From the NCBI GenBank assembly GCA_048633705.1, contig JAIWBS010000009.1, positions 1 through 12,176 on the forward strand: a stretch of 12,176 bases of DNA. The letters run 5' to 3'. Position 1 is the first letter of the stretch; each line of letters begins with the position of its first letter. The translations under genes were made by a program, and so were the position numbers. Below, piece after piece: positions 1-11,400 of this stretch. The notes beneath the pieces are model-generated. The model did no database searches, was not told the origin of the DNA, and saw only the letters and a list, made by a program, of their open reading frames with translations. Source of the stretch: Pirellulales bacterium (lineage in GTDB: Bacteria; Patescibacteriota; Patescibacteriia; JBDRGY01).

Positions 1-1
1 C

Positions 2-793
2 CCCTCTGATATAAAAGAGAATTTCAGCAAAGCAGGCACCAGTCATATTATTGCCATCTCGGGGATGCACATTACTATCATATCGGGCTTGATTCTCGGC
101 CTACTGATGGGCATTGGCTTTAATCGCAAGCAGGCATTTTTGGCAGCTACCATGATACTGCTAATTTATCTGTTTATAATCGGTTTTCCGGCCTCGGCAG
201 TCAGGGCAACCATTATGGGTTTTTTGGTAATGTGGGCAATGTATTTAGGCCGGCTAAATAATTCCCTGAACGCTCTTTTATTAACAGCTTCGATCATGCT
301 TTTGATAAATCCTAGACTGTTGAGGAATGATATTGGCTTTCAACTTTCTTTTGCCGCGGTTATCGGAATAATATATTTTAAACCACTTTTTGATAATCTA
401 TTCGCCAAACTGTCCAGTCGGTTCCAAATAAAAGAAGCAATTGCCATGACTTTAGCTGCTCAAATCACTACTTGGCCGCTGACAATTTATTATTTTGATA
501 AGTTTTCTCTAATTGCCCCAATTGCTAATGTTTTGATTGTGCCGGTTTTGCCCTTTGTCCTAATCTTAGGAATTATTGGAATAGGATTAGGATTTATTGT
601 ACCGTCCATGGCTCAGCTGGTTTTTTGGATTCTGTCTTTGTTGATCACTTATGTAATTAAAACAATTGAGGTATTGAGCACATTATCCTTTTCTTACCTA
701 AGGATTGAAGGATTTCAGCCGGTCTATATTCTGTTTGCTTATTGTCTAGTTTTTGGTTTACTATTTATAATAAGGAGAAGAAAATATGCCTAG
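2..793 (+). CDS. comEC: ComEC/Rec2 competence-domain polytopic membrane protein, 5'-truncated by the window edge
   Basis: The frame of the 65..793 ORF stays open back to nt 2, reading PSDIKENFSKAGTSHIIAISGMH. The 'SHIIAISGMH' stretch matches the classic ComEC competence-domain signature (HLLAISGLH-like). The rest is multi-helix hydrophobic, typical of the ComEC channel domain. A stop at 791-793 overlaps the next ORF's start. Confidence 0.75.
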   Translation, partial: PSDIKENFSKAGTSHIIAISGMHITIISGLILGLLMGIGFNRKQAFLAATMILLIYLFIIGFPASAVRATIMGFLVMWAMYLGRLNNSLNALLLTASIMLLINPRLLRNDIGFQLSFAAVIGIIYFKPLFDNLFAKLSSRFQIKEAIAMTLAAQITTWPLTIYYFDKFSLIAPIANVLIVPVLPFVLILGIIGIGLGFIVPSMAQLVFWILSLLITYVIKTIEVLSTLSFSYLRIEGFQPVYILFAYCLVFGLLFIIRRRKYA

Positions 794-1640
794 TCGCTAT
801 AAACTATTAATAATTATTGTTGTCCTTATGGCTGTTGGGGCAGGAGTTTTCTTTTGGCTTTATAGAGAAAGTCCCCAACAGCTGGAAGTAATTTTTATGG
901 ATATTGGCCAAGGTGATGCGATTTTGATTAAAACACCATACGACCAGCAAATATTAATTGATGGGGGACCAGACAATTCAATTCTCCAAAAATTGGGAGA
1001 ACATATGCCGTTTTGGGACAGGTCGATTGATTTGATGATACTAACTCATCCCCATTCAGATCACGTGGGCGGCTTAGTGGCAGTGTTGGATCGCTATGAA
1101 GTAGCCAATATTTTCTACACTGGAGTCAGTTGTCATTCGCCCGATTATTTGGCTTGGCTAGAAAAAATCGAAAAAAAAGGAATCCCCCTAAAGATTATGA
1201 AGATTGGGAACAAAATAACTTTGGGCGGTGATTTGGTTTTGGATACGCTATTTCCCTTCCAGGATTTGACCGATCAAGAAGTAGATGATTTAAATGGCAC
1301 CTCGATTGTCAACAGGCTGGTTTACGGCCAGCACAGTTTTCTATTAACCGGTGATTTGACTTCTGTGCAGGAAGAAGAAATTTTACAAAAGAGATTAATT
1401 ATTGAATCAGATGTTTTGAAAGTAGGGCATCATGGTTCAAAGTATTCTTCCTCGCCAGATTTTTTGGAGACAGTTGATCCACAATACGCGGTTATTCAAG
1501 TGGGCCAAGATAATAGGTTTGGCCATCCTCATCTTCTTACTATACAAAATCTAGAAAATGCAGATGCTGTGATTTTGCGCAATGACCGACAGGGTGACAT
1601 TAAATGTCAGTCGGATAAGGTTGTTTTATCTTGTTTTTAG
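786..1640 (+). CDS. comEC: ComEC-type metallo-beta-lactamase-fold domain protein with an N-terminal TM anchor, encoded as a separate ORF
   Basis: The 786..1640 ORF has an N-terminal TM helix (LLIIIVVLMAVGAGVFFWLY). It then shows 'IFMDIGQGDAILIK', an HxHxDH motif 'HPHSDHVGG' and 'VGHHGSKYSS', which together are characteristic of the ComEC C-terminal MBL domain. An SD-like AGGAGA lies 7 nt upstream of the ATG. The start overlaps the upstream stop in ATGCCTAG. Confidence 0.8.
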   Translation: MPSRYKLLIIIVVLMAVGAGVFFWLYRESPQQLEVIFMDIGQGDAILIKTPYDQQILIDGGPDNSILQKLGEHMPFWDRSIDLMILTHPHSDHVGGLVAVLDRYEVANIFYTGVSCHSPDYLAWLEKIEKKGIPLKIMKIGNKITLGGDLVLDTLFPFQDLTDQEVDDLNGTSIVNRLVYGQHSFLLTGDLTSVQEEEILQKRLIIESDVLKVGHHGSKYSSSPDFLETVDPQYAVIQVGQDNRFGHPHLLTIQNLENADAVILRNDRQGDIKCQSDKVVLSCF

Positions 1641-1644
1641 TTTG

Positions 1645-1653
1645 TGCTATAAT
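1645..1653 (+). promoter_or_regulatory. Extended -10 element TGcTATAAT, 9 nt upstream of the ATG at 1663, implying a leaderless or near-leaderless transcript
   Basis: TGCTATAAT sits at 1645-1653 and the ATG at 1663. There is no SD in between. Confidence 0.4.
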
Positions 1654-1662
1654 TTTTAGTAT

Positions 1663-2334
1663 ATGAAAGAAGATCAATCAGAACAAGCTATTCCCAAGCC
1701 GTGGTATTTTAAGCCCTGGGAGGTTTTGGTTTCTTTTTTATTGGTGATCGTTCTAGTTTGGTTGATTGGTTTGAATATGTGGTTATGGAATCCTGATCCT
1801 TTTCCTGAAGACAATGAGCAAGCAGCCAACCCTTTTGCTACTGACGTAGACGATGATCCCTCTTGGGGTCCGCTAAATTCCGGAATTACTATTATTTCTT
1901 TTCAGGATTTTACCTGTTCAGCTTGTGCCCAGGCTTACCAAGCCATGAAGCAGTTAAGGGAAAATTATCTGACCAAAATTCATTTTGTGTTTAGAGATTT
2001 TCCGATTATCGGGGCTAATTCAACCGTTGCCGCTATGGCAGCAGAATGTGCCGATGATCAGGGGAAATTTTGGGAAATGCACGATAAACTTTTTGAAAAT
2101 CAAGAAAGAATATCCAAAGAGTACGTCAAAGCTTTTGCTGCTCAGATCGGTTTAGATATGATGGATTTTAATGAATGTTACGATTCCAATAAATATCTCA
2201 ATGAGATTCGCAATGATTTCAATGAAGGATTGGCAGCCGGAGCTACTGCCACACCGACTTATTTTGTCAACGGCACCAGAGTTGAAGGTGCTTTTAGTTA
2301 TGATGTCTGGGCGGAGGTGATTGAGAGTATTTAG
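1663..2334 (+). CDS. Membrane-anchored DsbA/BdbD-family thiol-disulfide oxidoreductase (thioredoxin fold)
   Basis: The 1663..2334 ORF has an N-terminal TM helix (VLVSFLLVIVLVWLIGL). Its CxxC active site reads 'FTCSACAQ'. A cis-Pro loop 'ATPTYFVNG' and 'GKFWEMHDKLF' match the DsbA-like Thioredoxin_4 family. Confidence 0.8.
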   Translation: MKEDQSEQAIPKPWYFKPWEVLVSFLLVIVLVWLIGLNMWLWNPDPFPEDNEQAANPFATDVDDDPSWGPLNSGITIISFQDFTCSACAQAYQAMKQLRENYLTKIHFVFRDFPIIGANSTVAAMAAECADDQGKFWEMHDKLFENQERISKEYVKAFAAQIGLDMMDFNECYDSNKYLNEIRNDFNEGLAAGATATPTYFVNGTRVEGAFSYDVWAEVIESI

Positions 2335-2365
2335 CAGTAGTTACTCTTATTAATCTGTTTCGGGG

Positions 2366-2393
2366 TTGACATTTTTTTTAATTGTGTTAAGAT
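2366..2393 (+). promoter_or_regulatory. Sigma70-like promoter: -35 TTGACA, 16-nt spacer, extended -10 TGtTAAGAT
   Basis: TTGACA at 2366-2371, TG at 2385-2386, TAAGAT at 2388-2393. AAGGA lies 6 nt before the ATG at 2432. Confidence 0.4.
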
Positions 2394-2431
2394 TTGAAAA
2401 CAAGTTAAAAATTAATAAATAAAGGAAAAAT

Positions 2432-3205
2432 ATGGAAGACGAAAAAACACCAGAAAGTAAGGGGTTATTTAAGAATCAATCCAAATTAACCTTTATGTTG
2501 GGTTTATTTATAGGGATTGCCGTGGTATCCACTTTTGCTTTCTTTTTTACGCTAGTTGTTCTGCTTAATGATGGCGAAGAGAGTGGAAATGTGGCTTCTG
2601 CCGACGGAGCCGTGGCCGGTCAAGCTGACGCTGATCCCGGTCCAATACCAACAGACGGTACAGCACCGCAAGCTCAAGGTAATATCGAACTGATTGTTAC
2701 CATCGACGACAATACACCAATTCGGGGCAACAAAGATGCCAAAGTGACCTTAATTGAATTTTCTGATTTTGAATGTTCTTATTGTTCCAGGCATCAGGAA
2801 ACTTTGAAACAGATCGTGGATGAATTTCCCAATGATGTTAGATTGGTCTACAAGCACTTTCCTTTGTCATTCCACACCAATGCTCAGAAAGCAGCTGAAG
2901 CCTCAGAATGTGCCGGTGAGCAAGGTAAGTTTTGGGAAATGCATGACAAACTATACGAAGCAGCCGCTAACAAAGAATTGAGTGTAGAGAAATATAAAGA
3001 GTTGGCCAAAGATCTGGGTTTAAATACCGGTCAATTCGATTCCTGTCTGGATGACGGCACCTACGCTTCCAAAGTCCAATCAGATATGCAGGAAGGGATT
3101 GCGGCTGGCGTAGAAGGTACTCCTGGTACCTTTATCAACGGTACTCTGATTTCCGGAGCAGTACCCTACGATTCTTTCGTAACGGTGATTCAAGGCGAAC
3201 TCTAA
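2432..3205 (+). CDS. Second membrane-anchored DsbA/BdbD-family thiol-disulfide oxidoreductase, a paralog of the upstream gene
   Basis: The 2432..3205 ORF has a TM helix, then a low-complexity Ala/Gly/Asp/Pro linker, then a thioredoxin domain. The CxxC reads 'FECSYCSRH'. 'GKFWEMHDKLY' and the cis-Pro loop 'GTPGTFINGTL' are clearly paralogous to ORF 1663..2334. Confidence 0.8.
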   Translation: MEDEKTPESKGLFKNQSKLTFMLGLFIGIAVVSTFAFFFTLVVLLNDGEESGNVASADGAVAGQADADPGPIPTDGTAPQAQGNIELIVTIDDNTPIRGNKDAKVTLIEFSDFECSYCSRHQETLKQIVDEFPNDVRLVYKHFPLSFHTNAQKAAEASECAGEQGKFWEMHDKLYEAAANKELSVEKYKELAKDLGLNTGQFDSCLDDGTYASKVQSDMQEGIAAGVEGTPGTFINGTLISGAVPYDSFVTVIQGEL

Positions 3206-3966
3206 TGCCCTGGTGGCAATTTACAGATATATCTATAGGACCCTTGACTATTCAAGTCTGGGGTCTTTTGGTTTCTTTAGCTTTTTTGGTCAGCATCATC
3301 GTTGCTTATTTTGAACTAAAAAGAAAAGAGCTGGATAGTAAGATTGTTCTGGACTTGGCGGTCTGGATTATTATCGGGGCGATAATCGGCAGCCGGCTTT
3401 TTTACGTGATAAACGAGTGGAGCAAGTTCCAAAATAATCTGGTTGATATTTTTAAAGTTTGGGAAGGGGGCATGGCTTTGTATGGAGGGGTGGCACTGGG
3501 AAGCTTGGCTGCTTGGCTTTTTATCAAGAAAAAGAAACTAAAATTTGGACCGTACGCCGATGCAGTGCTTTTTGTTTTACCCTTGGGCTTGTTTATCGGC
3601 CGGATCGGTTGTTTCATGATTCACGATCATCTAGGCACAGTAACTAGCTTTCCCTGGGGCATAGAATACCAAGGGGCATTGCGGCACGAAACCGCCATGT
3701 ATAGTATGATAGCTAACCTGATTATATTTTTCTGTTTATTCTATATCAGAAAAGCCAAATTCAATTTTACCGGGCTGGTTTCTTCGGTGTTTATGATTTG
3801 GTACGGGGTGACCCGGTTTATTATCGATATGTTCCGAGCCCAGGATTTACCGATGTCTGATCCCAGAATTGGAGGATTTACCCCCTCGCAGTATATTAGC
3901 GTTTTGTTGGTCGTATTGGGTGTTTGGTTGTTGGTGAGAAAAAGGAGATTAGAGATCGGTAATTAG
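3205..3966 (+). CDS. lgt: Prolipoprotein diacylglyceryl transferase
   Basis: The 3205..3966 ORF is a 7-TM protein. Its N-terminus 'GPLTIQVWGLLVSLAFLVS' resembles Lgt 'GPLSIHWYGLMY'. 'GGMALYGGVALG' is present. A divergent Lgt signature 'GRIGCFMIHDHLG' (compare GRxGNFxNxExxG) and the C-terminal 'YGVTRFIIDMFR' (compare E. coli YGxFRFIIEFFR) support the call. The ATG overlaps the upstream stop (TAATG). Confidence 0.85.
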   Translation: MPWWQFTDISIGPLTIQVWGLLVSLAFLVSIIVAYFELKRKELDSKIVLDLAVWIIIGAIIGSRLFYVINEWSKFQNNLVDIFKVWEGGMALYGGVALGSLAAWLFIKKKKLKFGPYADAVLFVLPLGLFIGRIGCFMIHDHLGTVTSFPWGIEYQGALRHETAMYSMIANLIIFFCLFYIRKAKFNFTGLVSSVFMIWYGVTRFIIDMFRAQDLPMSDPRIGGFTPSQYISVLLVVLGVWLLVRKRRLEIGN

Positions 3967-4045
3967 TAATTAGAATAATTAAAAACTCCATTTAGTGGAA
4001 TTTTTTTGTTTATGGGTTTAAAATAAGGCTGCATTAGTTATAAGG

Positions 4046-4074
4046 TTGACAAATTCACAGATATGTGATAATAT
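4046..4074 (+). promoter_or_regulatory. Consensus sigma70 promoter: -35 TTGACA, 17-nt spacer, extended -10 TGaTAATAT
   Basis: TTGACA at 4046-4051, TG at 4066-4067, TAATAT at 4069-4074. The predicted TSS is ~4081, giving a ~127-nt leader to the ATG at 4208. Confidence 0.6.
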
Positions 4075-4207
4075 CACCCGTCATCCTAGGAGTATTGTCT
4101 CTTGGGACGATCTGTCCTTTTTAGGATGGAATATAGTGTACATTGACAAGTTCTGAGTGCTAAACAAGCAGTATAACCAATGGCCATCAAACACGGAGGT
4201 GATGAGA

Positions 4208-5632
4208 ATGTATTGGCCCATAGTGTGGATCTGTATCGTCGTTGCTGTCATCGTGCTGGCGGTTGTTTTTCACAAGAAGGTTATCGAGGCAATCACCAGA
4301 TCAGCTACTCAGGTGGCCAGAGAGATAGCCCACAAGACAGTGGATGCGCGCATCGACGAGCTGAAGCCGATTACTGAAGGAGAGGCTGAATCGTCTAGTC
4401 AGGGCGGTAACGCCACGCAAAGTCCGGTTTACGAGAGTGTACCGGACATCAAGATCCGAAAGAACAGCTGGTTACTCTTTCCACTGGTTATCCAGTTGAT
4501 AGCGGTTGTTGTCATCTGGTCGCTTACTAGCGGTTTCGGAGATTCCGGTTGGAGCTGGCAGGGTTTCGCCCAGGGTCTGGCTAAGGCCGGATTGCTGGAG
4601 CTCGGCCTGGCTCTTCTGATCAAGCCGCAGCGAGTCGAGCAGCGGAGAGCCCGAGGCATCGAGTTTCTGGGCCGTCCGGTAGCCATCGCTCTAGAAGGAC
4701 TGGTTTTCCTCTGGCGTTGGGAGAGACTAAGCACCAAGCTAGGTACTGCCGAAGATACCGACGGCAAGAAAGTAACCAGAGCGGTGCCTCATTTCGTGAC
4801 TTCTCGGATGGTTACCATAGACATGGAACCTGAGGATGTTCACGATGAGGACATGGTTCCCTTCAAGGTTCAGATGGCCATGAAGTATGAGGTAGTCTGG
4901 ACTGAACAGGGAATCGTAGCAGCTCTCTACGGTTTCGAAGGTGACATCGAGATGCATATTGACCAGTCACTGCGGTCGGCTCTGGCAGATTTTGCTGGCA
5001 GTAAGAAAGTCAAAGATGTTCCTAGTAGCCAGAAAGAGCTGGAAGCCAGTGTCGAAACGTACTTCAAGAAAGAGGCCCTCGATTTCGTTCATCGCTTCGG
5101 CTATAAGTTGAAACAGGCTGAGTACAAAGGCCTGACTAGTCGGTTCTCCGATGCTCTGGCGGCTGGACAAATCAAGAAAGCCCTGGCAGCTGGTGATATT
5201 GCGGAGGCTGAAGGTAAGAAGCGAGCTGCCATGAAGGGGACCGATGCCAGGGTCTACGACATCGAAGAGAGCGGTAAGGCAGAGGCCAAGCGTCGAAAGA
5301 TGCTGGCGAAAGCTGATGCCAAGCGGCTGGAGCAGGCTATCCTGCAGATGGCTGGTTCTAATACAGAATTGGCCCAGCTTTCAGCCGAGGATAGACGTCA
5401 TCTGGCTGAGCGGGCGGCTGATTACCTTGGCACGCTCGACTACAACGCGGCCATCAAGACAGGAGCAGCTGACGAGAGTACGGTCGTCTTTGCCTCCCAG
5501 AGAGTGCCTGGTGTTCAGTTGGACGAGGCAGCTCTGCGTAGTGTGGTTTACCGTGTCATGCACGAAACTCTACCCGGAGGCAACGAGGCTGAGAACGGAC
5601 CTGCTGCGGCTGGTGCTGCTGCCGGGCAGTAA
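4208..5632 (+). CDS. SPFH/band-7 (flotillin/YqiK-like) membrane protein with two N-terminal TM helices and an Ala/Glu/Lys-rich coiled-coil C-terminus, high-GC
   Basis: The ORF track starts this frame at GTG 4157. GGAGG at 4195-4199 is optimally spaced (8 nt) for ATG 4208, where 'MYWPIVWICIVVAVIVLAVVF' begins. The SPFH-like core reads 'IALEGLVFLWRWERLS...VPHFVTSRMVTIDMEPEDV...FKVQMAMKYEVV...LRSALADFAGSKKVKDV'. It is followed by EA/K-rich repeats 'AEAEGKKRAAMKGTDARVYDIEESGKAEAKRRKMLAKADAKRLEQA' that resemble flotillin coiled coils. GC is ~55-60% against ~37% in the flanks. Confidence 0.55.
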   Translation: MYWPIVWICIVVAVIVLAVVFHKKVIEAITRSATQVAREIAHKTVDARIDELKPITEGEAESSSQGGNATQSPVYESVPDIKIRKNSWLLFPLVIQLIAVVVIWSLTSGFGDSGWSWQGFAQGLAKAGLLELGLALLIKPQRVEQRRARGIEFLGRPVAIALEGLVFLWRWERLSTKLGTAEDTDGKKVTRAVPHFVTSRMVTIDMEPEDVHDEDMVPFKVQMAMKYEVVWTEQGIVAALYGFEGDIEMHIDQSLRSALADFAGSKKVKDVPSSQKELEASVETYFKKEALDFVHRFGYKLKQAEYKGLTSRFSDALAAGQIKKALAAGDIAEAEGKKRAAMKGTDARVYDIEESGKAEAKRRKMLAKADAKRLEQAILQMAGSNTELAQLSAEDRRHLAERAADYLGTLDYNAAIKTGAADESTVVFASQRVPGVQLDEAALRSVVYRVMHETLPGGNEAENGPAAAGAAAGQ

Positions 5633-5650
5633 GCCGGAAAGGAGGGCGCC

Positions 5651-6799
5651 ATGAAGGTTAAGTGGATTTGGATCGCGATGGCTGGCTTCCTGGCTCTCTG
5701 GCTTTTGTCCAACGTTGACTTCAGTCGGCCGGCTGAGACGGTGAAAGCTGAGGTTGGAGCAGTTCAGGGTCTCCAGTTTAACTGGCTCTGGGCGGTTATC
5801 GCTCTGATCGTGTTGATCGTAGTATTGGTCATTCTGGCCAAGAAAGGAATCCTGAAGAATACCGGGTTGCCGAGCAAACTGTTGCTAGCAATCTTGTTCC
5901 TGGTTATGGCTATCGGCATCTTAGTGGCTGTTATCAAGCCGGATCGGTTACTGTTGATGGCCAAAGGGGAACCAGTAATATTCTTCGTATGTCTGGGTTT
6001 GCTGATTGTGGGCATTGGGTTCTGGAAGTTGTCAGAGCTGAACTACCCAGTCTGGTTTGCTTTCGTTGCCTTGTTGCTAGTTCTGCCGATTGGTCTGGCA
6101 AGAACCAATCCAGATCGAACGCCGAGTCATGACGAGCTGGAAACCGTCTTCGAGCACGAATGTTACCCCATTACCGACCCTGAGCGTTTGGCCCAATTTC
6201 CCTCTGTAGTTCGGGCTTACGACGTTAAGGTCGGACTGATCGAGGGTGGTGTAGGTGTTAGTAAGATCACCTTCACTGCCGAGGATGAGGGGTACTGGTG
6301 CCTGCTACGCAATTGGCAGGGCTGGTGGTGTGTCGGTGACGAGAAGACAGGCCGTCCGGTGGTTGGTATTCAAGGAGAGCCATCCTGGGAGTACGGTGAC
6401 AACAGAATGTGTACTTCCCGGAAATGGAATGTCGGCGGCTTGATGTGTTGGATTGGTACGCCGTTTGCCTACGACATGCCGCGAAAAGGGCTCTATAGCC
6501 TCAAGCACAACCCTTACTGGGAGCCCAGTCATCCAGACTGTTTCTTGGTGGGAGGAGACAAGCTGTTTCCCATCTTAGCCAAGGACTGGCTGGAATGGCT
6601 GGGTACAGATGAGGGCAACATCGTACTCTGCGGCAACGAGTCTGAAAACGGCTACAATGATGGCAACAATCTAGGTTTTGTCTGGGGTGAGCTCTGGATT
6701 CTCAGAGAGCGCCCGGTAGAGAGCCAGTTGCTGCCGTTGTTGGAGAAGTCTCGTGGTCGTACGAGCACTCAGAACACATGTGGGGTTTCTCCCGCATGA
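5651..6799 (+). CDS. Polytopic membrane protein (~5 TM) with a ~230-aa C-terminal Cys- and Trp-rich domain of unknown function, high-GC
   Basis: The 5651..6799 ORF has GGAGGG 5 nt upstream of its ATG. Five hydrophobic helices occupy the first ~150 aa. The C-terminal domain holds 8 Cys and ~12 Trp (YWCLLRNWQGWWCVGD, MCWIGTPFAYD, HPDCFLVGG) and I recognise no family in it. Codon usage is GC-rich like the upstream gene. Confidence 0.6.
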   Translation: MKVKWIWIAMAGFLALWLLSNVDFSRPAETVKAEVGAVQGLQFNWLWAVIALIVLIVVLVILAKKGILKNTGLPSKLLLAILFLVMAIGILVAVIKPDRLLLMAKGEPVIFFVCLGLLIVGIGFWKLSELNYPVWFAFVALLLVLPIGLARTNPDRTPSHDELETVFEHECYPITDPERLAQFPSVVRAYDVKVGLIEGGVGVSKITFTAEDEGYWCLLRNWQGWWCVGDEKTGRPVVGIQGEPSWEYGDNRMCTSRKWNVGGLMCWIGTPFAYDMPRKGLYSLKHNPYWEPSHPDCFLVGGDKLFPILAKDWLEWLGTDEGNIVLCGNESENGYNDGNNLGFVWGELWILRERPVESQLLPLLEKSRGRTSTQNTCGVSPA

Positions 6800-6805
6800 C
6801 TTCAC

Positions 6806-6846
6806 GGCCCCAGCGAGCATCGCTTGCTGGGGCCTCTTCTTTTTCT
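6806..6846 (+). terminator. Rho-independent terminator
   Basis: GGCCCCAGCGAGC (6806-6818), loop ATC, GCTTGCTGGGGCC (6822-6834). This is a 13-bp stem with one G.U pair, followed by TCTTCTTTTTCT. Confidence 0.8.
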
Positions 6847-6861
6847 AAAAAGTGACAAAAT

Positions 6862-6870
6862 TGCTATAAT
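6862..6870 (+). promoter_or_regulatory. Extended -10 element TGcTATAAT, 6 nt upstream of the ATG at 6877 (leaderless-type)
   Basis: TGCTATAAT at 6862-6870. ATG at 6877 with no SD. This is the same architecture as at 1645-1663. Confidence 0.4.
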
Positions 6871-6876
6871 AAGGGC

Positions 6877-8427
6877 ATGAAGGTAATTACCAAAAAGGAA
6901 TGGCTTTGGGTTTTGATTTTTGCCTGTTTGGTGATGTTGGTAACAGTGGTTCCTTATATTTATGGAATGTTAATCAAGCCGGACAATTTGTATTTTTCCG
7001 GGGTGCACCGCTTAAATTCTGGCGATACTTATTCTTATCTGGCTTGGATGCAGCAAGCCAGAGAAGGTAACTGGCTATTCAAGATATTATACACAACTGA
7101 AGCACAGCCCAGAGTGATTTTCTTGCCGTTTTTTCTGGTGATGGGTTGGTTGGCCCGATTGACCAATTTATCCAATATTGCCTTTTTTCATTTATCCCGG
7201 TTTATTTTAGGGATAATTTTTTTATTGGTGGCCTATAAATTTTTGGCTCTGTTTTTTAATGAAGTTAGAAAAAGGAAAATTGCTTTGGCTGTTTTGGCCT
7301 TGAGTTCTGGTTTGGGTTGGTTATTTGGCAATTACAGTTTATCGACTGATAAATTCATGACCGAGTCCATTACCTTTTTAAATCTTTATGAATCCCCTCT
7401 CAATTTAATTTCTTTAATATTGATACTTACAACTTTTTATTTTTTACTACGCTCTTTTAAGGAGAATCAAAAGAGATTTATTGGTTTTTCTGGTTTGTCT
7501 TTGTTATTTTTACATTTGATTCATCCTTTTGATTCTATAACCGTAATGATTACTGTGGTTTTTTTGATGACTTTTTTATTCCTTTACAGTCGAGATTTTT
7601 GGCCTAAATTGAAAACGGCTATTTTTGTTATTTTGATTAGCTTGCCAGGATTATTTATTACCATTTTCGCCTTTATCAAAAATCCGGCTTTGCATAGCTG
7701 GCACGAAGCTAATGTCAGACTTTCTCCTTCTTTCTGGGCTTATTTATCGGGTTACGGTTTGTTGATAGTACTGGCCTTGTTTAGTATCAAAAAGTTTTCA
7801 GTTAAAGAAGACAAATTCTCTTTGGTTATGGCTTGGTTGATTACCACTTTAATTTTGATTTGGCAACCTTTTCTTCATTTCCAAAGAAAGTTTGCTTTAG
7901 GGTTGCATATCCCCATTGTTATTTTGGCGGTGATCGGTCTTTTCGGGCTGGCCAAGAAATTTAAATTATCCCGCAAATTTGTTATTGGTTTAATTATTGT
8001 CTTATCCTTTACCAACATCAAGATAATGTTAAACGACACCTATTCTTTCGACTCCCTGACTGCTCCTTATTATTGGAACCAGGATTATATCACGGCGATC
8101 GAGTGGCTGGCGGATCAAGAAAAAGGAGTAGTTTTGACTAATCCTAGTATTTCTAATATTGTTCCGGGTTTATCTGGTCAGACAGTTTATTCAGGACATA
8201 CTGATCAAACTAAAGATAGAGAGCATAAAATTGAAGAATTCAAATGGTTTATCAGTAGTCAGGGGACAATCACTGCCAAAAGGCAATTCTTGAGCGATAA
8301 AGGCATTAATTATATTCTTTATTTGACTGATTTAGTTGACGAGGATTATGTTTTAGTTCATCAAGATGATTTGGGATTAGAGCAAATTTATTTCAATGAC
8401 AGCTGTGCAATTTTCGGTTATAATTAA
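6877..8427 (+). CDS. Polytopic membrane protein, putative GT-C-fold glycosyltransferase (PMT_2/ArnT-like), with a C-terminal extracytoplasmic domain
   Basis: The 6877..8427 ORF has ~11 predicted TM helices. The first loop motif 'SGDTYSYLAWMQQAREGNWLF' resembles the ArnT/PMT 'DExRYAEIAREMxxSGDWxxP' region. A ~150-aa soluble C-terminal domain follows. The call rests on motif and topology only. Confidence 0.45.
   Translation: MKVITKKEWLWVLIFACLVMLVTVVPYIYGMLIKPDNLYFSGVHRLNSGDTYSYLAWMQQAREGNWLFKILYTTEAQPRVIFLPFFLVMGWLARLTNLSNIAFFHLSRFILGIIFLLVAYKFLALFFNEVRKRKIALAVLALSSGLGWLFGNYSLSTDKFMTESITFLNLYESPLNLISLILILTTFYFLLRSFKENQKRFIGFSGLSLLFLHLIHPFDSITVMITVVFLMTFLFLYSRDFWPKLKTAIFVILISLPGLFITIFAFIKNPALHSWHEANVRLSPSFWAYLSGYGLLIVLALFSIKKFSVKEDKFSLVMAWLITTLILIWQPFLHFQRKFALGLHIPIVILAVIGLFGLAKKFKLSRKFVIGLIIVLSFTNIKIMLNDTYSFDSLTAPYYWNQDYITAIEWLADQEKGVVLTNPSISNIVPGLSGQTVYSGHTDQTKDREHKIEEFKWFISSQGTITAKRQFLSDKGINYILYLTDLVDEDYVLVHQDDLGLEQIYFNDSCAIFGYN
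8396..8424 (+). promoter_or_regulatory. Candidate promoter for the large surface-protein gene, embedded in the 3' end of the upstream CDS: -35 ATGACA, 17-nt spacer, -10 TATAAT
   Basis: ATGACA at 8396-8401 and TATAAT at 8419-8424. AAGG lies 4 nt before ATG 8462. Confidence 0.35.
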
Positions 8428-8461
8428 TAATATCCGATTTACCATTAATAATTTAAGGTTT

Positions 8462-11400
8462 ATGAAGAAAGTATTCAGTTTAATGGTCGTAATCGTCCTC
8501 ATAGGCGGTTTTTTTGTTCCAAAAAGTATAGTCCAAGCTACTTACGGTGATGTGACGACTTATCTCGGTCATATATATGGCGGCGATGGTGGTCCAGCCC
8601 TGGATGCCTATTTAGATTTTCCAGAGGACATTGCAGTGGATTCTTCAGGTAATTTTTTTGTGGCTGATACCTATAATAATGTTATCCGGAAAATTAATTC
8701 ATCAGGCACTATTTCCACTTTGGCCGGTACCGGTTCTAATGGTTTGACTAATGGTGTAGCTTTATCAGCTGAATTTTCTTTGCCCAGGGGAGTGGCCCTA
8801 GACGGATCCGGTAATGTTTATGTAGCGGATACGGGTAATAACGTTATTAGAAAAATATCAGGGGGAACAGTAACTACTTTAGTTAGCTCAGGTTTATCCG
8901 GGCCAGAGGGTTTGGTGGTTTACGGTTCAACCGTTTTCATCGCTGATACCGGCAATGATGCCATAAAAACAGTATCAACTTCTGGAGGCTCGGTGGCTAC
9001 TTTAGCCGGTTCGGGATTAAGTTCTCCCAAAAAAATTGACATCTCCAGTGGCGGTACACTTTTATACGTAGCTGATGCTGGTAGTTATCGAGTTTTGACT
9101 GTAGACACCGGAACCGGGGCAGTGGCTGTTTTAGCCGGCTCTGGAACCGAAGGATATCAAGAGGGAATTGGCACGGCAGCCAAGTTTCAAAACATCTGGG
9201 GGGTTACTCTTTACGATGGATATCTTTATGTAGCCGATGGGGATGGTTATGACGACTTGATCAGAAAGATTGACACTAGTACCGGCGAAACCAGTTTGTA
9301 CGCCGATGACAGTAATATGCTGTCAATCAATTTCGGTACCGGAATCAAAGTTTATGACGGATACATCTATTTATGCAATTCAGGGATCGGGACAATTCAT
9401 AAATTCAATTTACTGGACGATGGTGACAATGAACTATTTGCCGGTTATGAGCGATTTGGCTACCGCAATGGCACTAATCCGCTTTTTGGCCGGCCGCATG
9501 ATATGGTTATGACTAAAGACGGATCAACTTTTTATTTGGCTGATAATAATAAAATTAGAAAAATAGTTAAAGCGACTGGTAATACATCTTACATAACTGG
9601 CTCCTCGGTTGATAATTATCGAGAAGGTTTGCCAATGGGAGCCTCGGGTGGTATCGGAGTAGAGTCTCGCTTTAGTACCATTGCTTCTATTACTATTAAT
9701 AATGCCGGTACCTCCTTGTATCTAGTCGACCGTTGGAATAACCGTATTCGTAAAGTTGATTTATCTGATCCTGATTACCAAACATATCTGATTTCCGGGG
9801 CAGGACGAATAAACACCACTGGGCAGCAGACACACGGCTACCAAGAAGGGAAAAAATGTGTTTCGGTCAAAGATAAAGACGAGACATTTACCAAACAATC
9901 AGGTTGTGCCTATTTTGACAACCCCGCCGGAATTGTTATCTCTCCCGATAATAGCTATTTATATGTGGCTGATACCAATAATCAGCGAATTCGTAAGGTC
10001 AGTATTATCGACGGCCAGACTTCATTGGTAGCTGGCTCGGGTAGTGCTGCCTATAAAGATGGCACAGGATTGGCTGCCAGTTTTCACACACCTTATGGTA
10101 TAGCCATTGATCAATCTGGAGATTATTTATACGTGGCTGATCGGGATAATCACCGGATTAGAACAATTAATACCACGACCGGGGTGGTAACTACTTTGGC
10201 TGGCAACGGAACAGCTGGCTATCGAGACGCTATCGGTACGGATGCCGTATTTTCCTACCCAGAATATATTAAGATGGGAGCTGACGGTAATCTGTACGTG
10301 ACCGAAGTGGGTTCACACCGGATTCGAGTAGTAAATCCGATTACCGGCGACACCAGATTGGTAGCAGGTTCAGGCGATCGGGGTTTTGCTAACGGGGCCA
10401 AGGAGGAAGCAGAGTTCAATAATTTGGAAGGAATTGCCCCAGATACCGCCAATGACACAGTTTACGTAATAGACTCCTGGAATGATTTGATTCGCCAGGT
10501 GGATATCACTGGCGAGATTCCTTATACTGAACCGGCTCCAACAGTAACCTCTGTTGATCCGGATTTTGTGGAACCCAAATGGGACGACGGTACTGGTTTG
10601 CGGGTGAGGATTTTAGGTACCAATTTCCGTCATGGAGCAATTACCCAGTTTTACAATTATCGGGCAGAGGAGACTTATGTAGTTTCCAGTACAGAATTAG
10701 TTGCCGAATTGCCACTGGATCAAATGGCAGCCGGTTATTATGATGTCAAAGTAACTAATTTGGATGGTCAGTCAGCCACCTTGTCCAAGGGAATCGGAAT
10801 TTCTGATAATCTGGGCAGTGTTCCGGACGAACACTTTGCTTTGCCGGGAACGGTAAGTAATGAGGAAATAACTGTAGCTGAGGGTACTAGTTTTTACGCT
10901 TATGCCGAATCAATTCGCGGTGGTTATTACGTGGCAGTTGGCAATGTGAGGGATGATAATCGGGAAGAAATTGTGACCGGAACCGGAGAAGGGCTGGGAC
11001 CTCAAGTTCGAGTATTTGATTTGGAAGGCAATGATAAAACTACATTTTTTGCATACGCAGAACATTTAAGGTCGGGTATCAGGGTAGCGGTGGGAGATTT
11101 AAACGGCGATGGCAGGAACGAAATAATTACCGCTCCTGGTCCGGGTGGTCGTCCCCATATCCAGACTTTTGACGGTGATGGTAATCGATTAAATCCCGGT
11201 TTTATGGCTTTGGACGGGCAGTTTTTAGGTGGAGCTTTTGTAGCCTGTGGAGATATTAATGGTGATGGTAAAGACGAAATTATTGTTACAGCAGGGCCGG
11301 GTGGAGGACCGCATGTTACTGTTCACAATGGTGATGGGGAATTGTTAGCTTCTTTCTTTGCTTATGATCAGCATACTTTCCGTTATGGCATCAGACCGGC

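Follow-up and report, generated by a model that had tools for sequence, protein, structure and literature searches.

We examined a 12,176-bp stretch of DNA (hereafter the window), which is the whole of contig JAIWBS010000009.1 from an NCBI assembly, GCA_048633705.1. Our subject is a GC-rich two-gene unit on the plus strand, directly downstream of lgt, the gene for prolipoprotein diacylglyceryl transferase. The first gene of the unit (gene 1) encodes a divergent SPFH/Band_7 protein and the second (gene 2) a polytopic membrane protein with a Cys/Trp-rich tail. The features of the unit are as follows (TM, transmembrane):

4046..4074, plus strand: promoter-like site of the sigma-70 type, TTGACA, 17 nt, (TG-n-)TAATAT, matching the consensus at 10 of 12 positions
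4075..4207, plus strand: 5' leader, ~130 nt long, in which a pair of small hairpins and the Shine-Dalgarno sequence GGAGG (4195-4199) are found
4208..5632, plus strand: gene 1, 474 aa, divergent SPFH/Band_7 protein, assigned by its Pfam Band_7 match
5633..5650, plus strand: intergenic spacer of 18 nt, carrying GGAGG at 5640-5644
5651..6799, plus strand: gene 2, 382 aa, polytopic membrane protein with five TM segments by hydropathy
6806..6846, plus strand: intrinsic terminator with a 13-bp GC-rich stem, a 3-nt loop and a T-rich tail

An earlier sequence-only reading of this DNA had described a self-contained transcription unit with a perfect-consensus promoter, strong GGAGG sites before both genes and a 13-bp GC-rich terminator downstream. 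The promoter-like site, the two ribosome-binding sites, the short spacer and the terminator bear out the self-contained arrangement. The promoter itself is near-consensus only, since its -10 hexamer, TAATAT, matches at four of six positions, with an extended -10 TG upstream. Three promoter-like sites were found in the region against 2.4 expected from shuffled sequence, which is no excess. The site at 4046-4074 lies in AT-rich DNA (GC 0.29-0.40) and is unchanged in a second assembly and in a Logan contig. Searched as a possible regulatory RNA, the leader gave no Rfam match, and its fold is unexceptional (z = -0.84). The GGAGG at 4195-4199 sits 8 nt 5' of ATG 4208, which is a better candidate for the start of gene 1 than the GTG at 4157 given in the open reading frame (ORF) list, because that GTG is upstream of the Shine-Dalgarno site. 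The GGAGG in the spacer sits 6 nt 5' of the gene 2 ATG at 5651, and from this layout the two genes are likely co-transcribed. The terminator stem was confirmed at 6806-6834, where 13 bp, including 10 G-C pairs, enclose the 3-nt loop and are followed by TCTTCTTTTT.

The base composition of the unit departs from that of its surroundings. In a sliding profile of 300-nt segments, GC was 0.49-0.60 across 4200-6900, compared with 0.35-0.44 across 3150-4200 and 0.28-0.44 across 6900-8700, so that the reported GC jump stands and a uniform profile is ruled out. Its boundaries had been called sharp, which is true of the right edge, where GC drops from 0.60 at 6760-6839 to 0.30 at 6840-6919 (80-nt segments). 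The left edge is instead gradual and stepped: at the same resolution the values are 0.23-0.29 over 3960-4079, ~0.40 over 4040-4200 and, from 4240 on, 0.51 or more. The GC content of the two genes is 0.53-0.55 against a host background of 0.35-0.44. At third codon positions (GC3) the values are 0.584 for gene 1 and 0.623 for gene 2, compared with 0.36-0.49 in seven flanking genes. Because the shift resides in synonymous positions, amino-acid content is not its cause.

Codon usage follows the same pattern. From the flanking genes to the unit, the codon fractions rise from 0.14 to 0.42 for CTG, from 0.30 to 0.71 for AAG, from 0.29 to 0.71 for GAG and from 0.24 to 0.65 for ATC, and the fractions of TTC, TAC, AAC and CAG are higher in the unit as well. 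The earlier claim that the unit is rich in CTG, GCC and CGG therefore survives for CTG and fails for the other two: the GCC fraction stays level (0.34 vs 0.32), and that of CGG is barely raised (0.17 vs 0.24). Relative synonymous codon usage correlates at 0.71 between gene 1 and gene 2, and at 0.68 and 0.51 between the unit genes and locus L001, described below. Correlations of the unit genes with host genes were about 0.05-0.14. The unit thus displays the deviating composition and codon usage by which horizontally acquired islets are recognized, and it is both compositionally foreign and self-contained for transcription.

The product of gene 1 is a very divergent member of the SPFH/Band_7 superfamily, and its N-terminal membrane region is extended. 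It matches Pfam Band_7 (PF01145) over residues 195-336 with 30.0 bits, above the cut-off of 23.6 (E = 6.7e-7). Hydropathy places TM segments at 3-21 and 89-107 and an amphipathic, less hydrophobic segment at 118-138, and an N-terminal membrane anchor is thereby present ahead of the SPFH domain. The SPFH core spans ~150-336, an Ala/Glu/Lys-rich helical region, recognized in the primary sequence only, spans ~318-400, and a conserved C-terminal motif, STVVFAS...VPGVQLDEAALRS, and an Ala/Gly tail complete the protein. The segments at 89-107 and 118-138 resemble a stomatin-type hydrophobic hairpin. The stretch KPQRVEQRRAR that follows the hairpin, with its five basic residues, suggests, by the positive-inside rule, that the SPFH core and the helical region would face the cytoplasm. 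Aligned with a conventional stomatin encoded on L003, a contig from the host's closest relative as judged by Lgt, gene 1 gave a weak colinear pairwise match (E = 0.027) that extends across the SPFH beta-region and on into the AEAE-rich helix. Its C-terminal strand, of the 'TVVF' type, is like that of this stomatin.

The SPFH/band-7 core and the long N-terminal membrane region agree with what had been read from the sequence at the outset, and the accompanying 'flotillin-like' label does not: no match specific to flotillin, HflK or HflC was obtained, as Pfam returned only the generic Band_7 and NCBIfam returned none at E up to 0.1. A PDB profile search with gene 1 retrieved no SPFH chain. Its match there to designer PPR proteins was rejected as spurious, the score being summed over repeats of 'GLAKAGLLE'.

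Relatives of gene 1 are exceedingly few, with a single one found among ~15 billion proteins. A search of 5.8e9 clusters returned one, P0003, which is encoded at locus L001 and is 54% identical over 390 aa, and a two-sequence profile built from gene 1 and P0003 added no further relatives. Pattern scans of metagenomes were empty, as were viral scans with patterns that reach fairly close relatives only and searches of phage and plasmid collections. A degenerate hand-made pattern of the conserved GVQLDEAAL motif returned 120 loci, none of which was related by tblastn. Relative to its homolog, gene 1 has an 18-residue insertion, KLGTAEDTDGKKVTRAVPHF, at approximately residues 176-196 (4733-4795), where the SPFH core starts. 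The extra N-terminal TM helix of gene 1 is absent from the homolog, which keeps the later two hydrophobic segments.

Gene 2 has TM segments at residues 6-24, 45-63, 77-95, 109-127 and 132-150 by hydropathy, followed by a C-terminal domain of 232 aa with eight cysteines and 12 tryptophans. This domain is predicted to lie outside the cell because of the N-terminal lysines and the stretch AKKGILKN after TM2 (positive-inside rule). Neighbouring DsbA-type oxidoreductases could form disulfides in it. The only homolog retrieved for gene 2 was itself, both in a word-indexed search of the 5.8e9 clusters and in an exhaustive HMMER search of 1.84e9 representatives. No match was found in Pfam, NCBIfam, PADLOC, PHROGs or PDB sequences, and nothing was found in phages or plasmids by tblastn or in a viral-contig scan that reaches fairly close relatives. 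Gene 2 nevertheless looks like a credible gene despite being without homologs, because it is an ORF of 1,149 nt with a strong Shine-Dalgarno site, the GC1 > GC2 < GC3 pattern of coding sequence and a codon usage like that of gene 1.

NfeD proteins are the usual partners of SPFH proteins, and NfeD (PF01957) was therefore sought in gene 2 at several levels. The whole protein gave no match at E up to 0.1, nor did NCBIfam, and the C-terminal 232 aa and an inner piece of 157 aa gave none at E up to 10. By these profile comparisons gene 2 is not NfeD and is outside described families, in keeping with its initial description as a five-TM, W/C-rich protein that could be placed in no family. A resemblance of its tail to the lectin LecA/PA-IL, suggested by the motifs GGLMCWIG and NIVLCGNE..YNDGNNLGF, was dropped for want of statistical support: in BLASTP comparisons with a LecA sequence, E was 4.8 for gene 2 and 0.22 for the partner protein on L003, a MAFFT alignment displayed motif-level resemblance alone, and neither Pfam nor PDB gave a match.

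The single homolog of gene 1 lies on L001, a 1,843-bp contig from the Joint Genome Institute (JGI 3300045411). Its true SPFH ORF is 450 aa long, starts with an ATG behind GGAGAGG and passes the Band_7 threshold with 24.4 bits. The contig is uniformly at 55% GC, with values of 0.48-0.59 along its entire length, including the 100 nt upstream of the SPFH gene, which makes L001 a candidate for a donor-type context. A multi-TM ORF starts 18 nt after the SPFH stop codon, a spacing equal to that in the window. This partner is cut off on L001 and has weak colinear similarity to the TM2-TM3 part of gene 2 (score 57 vs 37.7 ± 6.8, z 2.8; reached by 2 of 300 shuffles), which is suggestive of orthology between the two. 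The proposed co-occurrence of the pair is weakly borne out by this locus, as the sole SPFH homolog also has a multi-TM gene 18 nt downstream.

A second assembly, GCA_030617445.1, carries the region on two contigs, L002, equivalent to window positions 1-5897 (one single-nucleotide polymorphism, SNP), and L034, equivalent to 5981-8643 (three SNPs). The SNPs are at 2563, 6834, 6853 and 7384, all outside the two genes. With four SNPs the assemblies are not copies of each other, and since both junctions of the unit are spanned in this SNP-distinct assembly, a chimera is excluded as far as is possible without reads. A strain at 90-94% nucleotide identity is present in ENA analysis ERZ23498665 (SAMN18200500). 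One of its contigs (L035) ends in lgt, at window-equivalent 3717, and another (L033) starts at 6812 within the terminator, whose right arm is kept (L033 1-65) with a change that restores a G-C pair. No protein of ERZ23498665 matches gene 1 or gene 2, although the flanking proteins are in the same database; the junction is unassembled there, and the pattern could mean that the strain lacks the unit or that the locus is heterogeneous. The Logan contig L036 (SRR19020594), identical to the window, stops at 4087. Contig breaks on either side of the unit (3717, 4087 and 6812) would fit population heterogeneity at this locus.

A second GC-rich cassette was found near lgt on L003 (contig CAZQLY010000003.1, 131 kb), which holds the host's closest Lgt relative, at 47% identity, and shares its DsbA-DsbA-Lgt gene order. 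The cassette occupies 11820-15547 on the plus strand, ~1 kb downstream of lgt, with a conventional stomatin gene lying between. Its first gene encodes 737 aa with four N-terminal TM segments and a Band_7 match with insertions (25.3 bits, E = 1.8e-5), and its second encodes 475 aa, comprising six hydrophobic regions and, at the C-terminus, a domain of ~200 aa without cysteines. GC is 0.50-0.58 in a background of 0.35-0.42. The expression signals comprise TTGACA-17-TGnTATTGT, a leader of ~150 nt, GGAGG sites and a strong GC-rich terminator. The L003 cassette is therefore like the window unit in its TTGACA-17-TGnTA promoter, long leader, GGAGG sites, Band_7 protein, polytopic partner and terminator, and in its setting at DsbA-DsbA-Lgt in an AT-rich host; it is unlike it in its larger proteins, the Cys-free tail of its partner and the stomatin gene ahead of the cassette. 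Codon usage correlates between the two cassettes (r 0.38-0.55), and neither correlates with its own host. Among 30 Lgt-anchored loci, a GC-rich SPFH plus polytopic pair near lgt was found at this one and at none of the other 29. We thus have two, perhaps three, instances of one design with one compositional oddity, two of them in the same chromosomal neighbourhood.

L003 holds a further GC-rich ORF (17401-18282, GC 0.50 vs a locus mean of 0.43) for a 293-aa membrane protein, ~2 kb beyond the cassette and just before parA/parB, with no Pfam or PADLOC match. GC-rich ORFan membrane genes may be recurrent in that genome. ORFan membrane genes are common in genomes of the candidate phyla radiation (CPR).

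The remaining features that bear on the locus are these:

3205..3966, plus strand: lgt, prolipoprotein diacylglyceryl transferase (Pfam LGT, PF01790, E = 3.1e-58)
3986..4008, plus strand: weak hairpin after lgt, TCCA-TTTAG-TGGA followed by T7, read off the sequence
4150..4161, plus strand: left arm of a perfect 12-nt inverted repeat, GTTCTGAGTGCT, with its partner arm at 6764-6775
6764..6775, minus strand: right arm of the inverted repeat, AGCACTCAGAAC, inside the 3' end of gene 2
6877..8427, plus strand: 516-aa polytopic membrane protein with ~12 hydrophobic segments (GC 0.35)

The Pfam match confirms lgt as the left neighbour of the unit; the gene has a GC content of 0.43 and a GC3 of 0.49. 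The hairpin at 3986-4008 is possibly its own weak terminator, which the terminator scan did not flag. In GTDB, searched with one genome per species, relatives of Lgt at 33-47% identity belonged to metagenome-assembled genomes of Patescibacteria, mostly Candidatus Magasanikbacteria. Judged by these relatives, the host is a CPR bacterium without a close sequenced relative. Envelope genes surround the unit: a split ComEC, two DsbA-like proteins, Lgt, the polytopic protein at 6877 and a giant NHL/FG-GAP surface protein.

ComEC is divided into two ORFs, 65-793 and 786-1640, with an 8-nt overlap, giving a DUF4131/Competence membrane part and a 284-aa metallo-beta-lactamase part. The split is seen in all three strains (also at L002 2997-5256 and L035 1-2062), and it is therefore not a sequencing frameshift. 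The tandem DsbA-like thioredoxin paralogs, ~38-40% identical to each other, lie directly 5' of lgt (1663-3205), and the DsbA-DsbA-lgt order is kept in the two closest relatives (L003 8257-9550; L004 8237-9554). The DsbA pair implies extracytoplasmic disulfide formation in this CPR lineage. In these same two relatives, a conventional stomatin-type SPFH gene of 251-263 aa (Band_7, E = 5e-36) lies right after lgt on the opposite strand (L003 10829-11584, minus; L004 10994-11785, minus); downstream of lgt the window has the divergent GC-rich SPFH unit and not a conventional stomatin gene.

On the right flank, the 6877 gene had been labelled GT-C, for which we found no basis beyond its polytopic topology: it has no match in Pfam at E up to 10, in NCBIfam or in PDB sequences. 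Its 90% cluster has three members only, and the protein is itself an uncharacterised family. Downstream of it lies the 1141-aa NHL/FG-GAP protein, whose ORF has a listed start at 8396, 32 nt inside the preceding gene; the in-frame ATG at 8462, which opens MKKVFSLMVVIVLIGGFF, a signal-peptide-like sequence, appears the more plausible start. The remark that some neighbours look leaderless fits two of them. The 6877 gene has TATAAT 7 nt ahead of its ATG (6864-6879) and dsbA1 has it 9 nt ahead (1645-1665), and neither gene has a Shine-Dalgarno site; the unit genes, by contrast, have GGAGG.

The 12-nt inverted repeat has just these two copies in the window, near both ends of the unit, its arms lying 47 nt ahead of the start of gene 1 and 22 nt ahead of the stop of gene 2. 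By our own estimate ~0.3 such pairs are expected by chance per 3.1 kb, so its significance is uncertain. It could be chance, a relic of terminal repeats or a site of 5'-3' pairing in the mRNA. There is no counterpart around the L003 cassette.

Our preferred reading, to which we give somewhat better than an even chance, is that the unit is a bicistronic SPFH scaffold-client operon that came from a foreign mid-GC source by lateral acquisition or exchange and occupies a variable position among envelope genes in the chromosome of an AT-rich CPR host. A lineage of ~55% GC was probably the source from which the pair was acquired, or swapped in as a cassette, and its place just after lgt would be variable between strains. 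The presence of a similar cassette near lgt in the nearest relative speaks for a locus that varies recurrently and against a single insertion event. Prokaryotic SPFH genes are in general patchily distributed, laterally transferred, often extremely divergent and usually accompanied by a membrane partner (PMC2636767; PMC13086221).

As for how such an operon might work, gene 1 would be anchored by its N-terminal TM helix and the stomatin-like hydrophobic hairpin. Gene 2, made from the same mRNA, would be its cognate membrane client or partner and would display a disulfide-capable, Trp-rich domain outside the cell. By analogy with SPFH-NfeD, QmcA-YbbJ and HflK/C-FtsH, the helical region and C-terminal strand may bring the SPFH protein together in an oligomeric ring or cage attached to the membrane. 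Such an assembly could corral or stabilise the gene 2 partner and so, again by analogy, organise an envelope or surface function. The data themselves show the composition, the gene structure, the Band_7 membership, the rarity of the two proteins and the integrity of the junctions; topology, oligomerisation, the physical pairing, when and in which direction the pair was transferred, and its role in the cell are what we infer.

Several observations weigh against acquisition from outside or against the scaffold-client model. No donor has been identified and no empty site was found among relatives: a genome scan with the 6877 protein found nothing, and the scan with Lgt gave only relatives at 47% identity or less. 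The unit carries no integrase, transposase, other mobility ORF or tRNA, and it has no flanking direct repeats; of the recent insertion suggested at first, plausibility by composition is therefore the part that stands. The promoter and leader share the AT-richness of the host, which blurs the left limit of the foreign DNA. Beyond Band_7, no homology was detectable between the window pair and the L003 pair by BLASTP, hhalign or shuffle-calibrated Smith-Waterman alignment. Since gene 2 is without any homolog, its co-occurrence with gene 1 rests on architecture. The AlphaFold2 model of gene 1, made from a two-sequence alignment (mean pLDDT, the predicted local distance difference test score, 40.3), and the AlphaFold model of gene 2 (pLDDT 46.0) are too low in confidence to use. 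Finally, the occurrence of GC-rich cassettes close to lgt in two genomes with Lgt proteins only 47% identical could mean long residence with a maintained composition.

Long residence is the main rival to lateral acquisition. It holds that the cassette is native, old and fast-evolving at lgt, its GC-rich codons being kept by selection or by gene conversion and exchange within a cassette pool. The architecturally equivalent GC-rich pair ~1 kb from lgt on L003, in the same DsbA-DsbA-Lgt synteny, speaks for it, as do the correlated codon usage of the two cassettes, which neither shares with its host, the lack of mobility genes and att-like repeats, and the host-like composition of promoter and leader. 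We still judge it unlikely, because an AT-biased genome should erode a GC3 of ~0.6 over the time in which Lgt falls to 47% identity, and because the preference for the G-ending codons AAG, GAG and CAG looks like a mid-GC mutational bias and not like translational selection. The dissimilarity of the two cassettes outside Band_7, the occurrence of the pair at 1 of 30 Lgt loci and the uniformly GC-rich contig that holds the sole true homolog argue in the same direction. That assembly or binning created the GC-rich block, as a chimera of two organisms, seems scarcely credible. The abrupt GC change and the ends of related contigs near the unit (L035 at 3717, L036 at 4087, L033 at 6812 and L002/L034 at 5897/5981) would suit such an origin, yet it would need two precise junctions, both of them present in the second assembly with its four SNPs. 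The promoter, Shine-Dalgarno sites and terminator are moreover coherent with the flanks, and the analogous L003 cassette sits in mid-contig in 131 kb. The possibility of a chimeric assembly, raised when the unit was first described, is in this way answered as far as assembled contigs allow.

Two further alternatives concern what the pair does or is. It had been suggested that the unit might serve in phage defence or membrane stress. In anti-phage defence or abortive infection, the SPFH scaffold would act with a membrane effector to disrupt the membrane of an infected cell, a role that would suit an accessory-looking, rapidly diverging two-gene membrane unit of foreign composition. In PADLOC-DB v2, residues 215-304 of gene 1 gave borderline matches to PDC-S05 (and also S23) with E = 0.004-0.026 and 12-15 bits. 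These are at noise level and were not reproduced with the 54%-identical homolog or the L003 proteins; no PADLOC system was called, gene 2 has no PADLOC or PHROG match, and the neighbours are all envelope or competence genes, none of them a defence gene. Relatives of either protein were absent from the phage and plasmid collections and from viral-contig scans within reach of fairly close relatives, and a full-text literature search returned no established SPFH-based defence system. We consider a defence role distinctly improbable. It is also highly improbable, in our estimate, that gene 2 is a very divergent NfeD-type partner, the whole being an ordinary SPFH-NfeD operon beyond the reach of sequence tools. 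The NfeD OB-fold is ~60-90 aa long and lies on the SPFH side of the membrane. With NfeD proteins, gene 2 would share a general layout of TM helices followed by a C-terminal domain modelled as beta-rich. NfeD is the typical companion of SPFH genes, and partners such as YuaF can be only weakly NfeD-like (PMC2636767). Against this, PF01957 finds no match, the Cys/Trp-rich tail is 232 aa long and predicted to be extracytoplasmic, and there are five TM segments where short NfeD proteins have two or three.

Returning to an acquired scaffold-client operon, its closest known counterparts are the SPFH-NfeD operons, in which the gene of a membrane-anchored SPFH protein is accompanied by one for a membrane partner with N-terminal TM helices and a beta-rich domain at the C-terminus (PMC2636767; PMC13086221). 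The unit is like the stomatin pair PH1511/PH1510, E. coli QmcA-YbbJ and FloA/FloT with NfeD in combining an SPFH protein and a membrane partner in one operon. It is unlike them in a partner that has no NfeD match and combines five TM segments with a Cys/Trp-rich domain of 232 aa, predicted to be extracellular, and in an SPFH protein with an extra N-terminal TM helix, a 65-aa charged linker and no PDB or NCBIfam match. Divergent SPFH proteins of restricted distribution have been described before. The orphan groups SPFH6-12 of Hinderhofer et al. (2009) are divergent and patchy, have few members, bear signs of lateral transfer and in some cases are without an NfeD partner (PMC2636767), and PaFlo3-9 of Pseudomonas aeruginosa are laterally acquired divergent SPFH proteins (PMC13086221). 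Gene 1 resembles both sets in being highly divergent and rare. The cases of 2009 mostly had little codon deviation (PMC2636767); the lineage of gene 1, unlike these, has two known members and a far stronger compositional signal. The unit also differs from HflK/C-FtsH in that gene 1 has no HflK-, HflC- or flotillin-specific match and no protease gene is present, although by analogy the same working principle is likely to apply. In HflK/C-FtsH and flotillin cages, an SPFH oligomer encloses a patch of membrane together with a client protein.

What is new here is that an SPFH operon has a partner without precedent and that both its host and its composition are unusual. A broader proposal, which we regard as rather improbable, is that the window unit, L001 and L003 represent one undescribed class of hyper-divergent, GC-rich cassettes, each pairing an SPFH scaffold with a polytopic surface-domain protein, that are exchanged at a DsbA-Lgt hotspot of Patescibacteria; their function could be to recognise the surface of host cells in a strain-specific way, or exclusion, for these episymbionts. 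The finding so far is one rare operon, whose role may be proposed by analogy only. SPFH proteins are universal membrane organisers with mostly unknown clients, and an operon that makes the client evident would give a clean test system, all the more as the putative client here is neither NfeD nor a protease and is unique in sequence space. A strongly GC-shifted, strain-variable envelope cassette also bears on how reduced, host-dependent Patescibacteria acquire and turn over surface functions.

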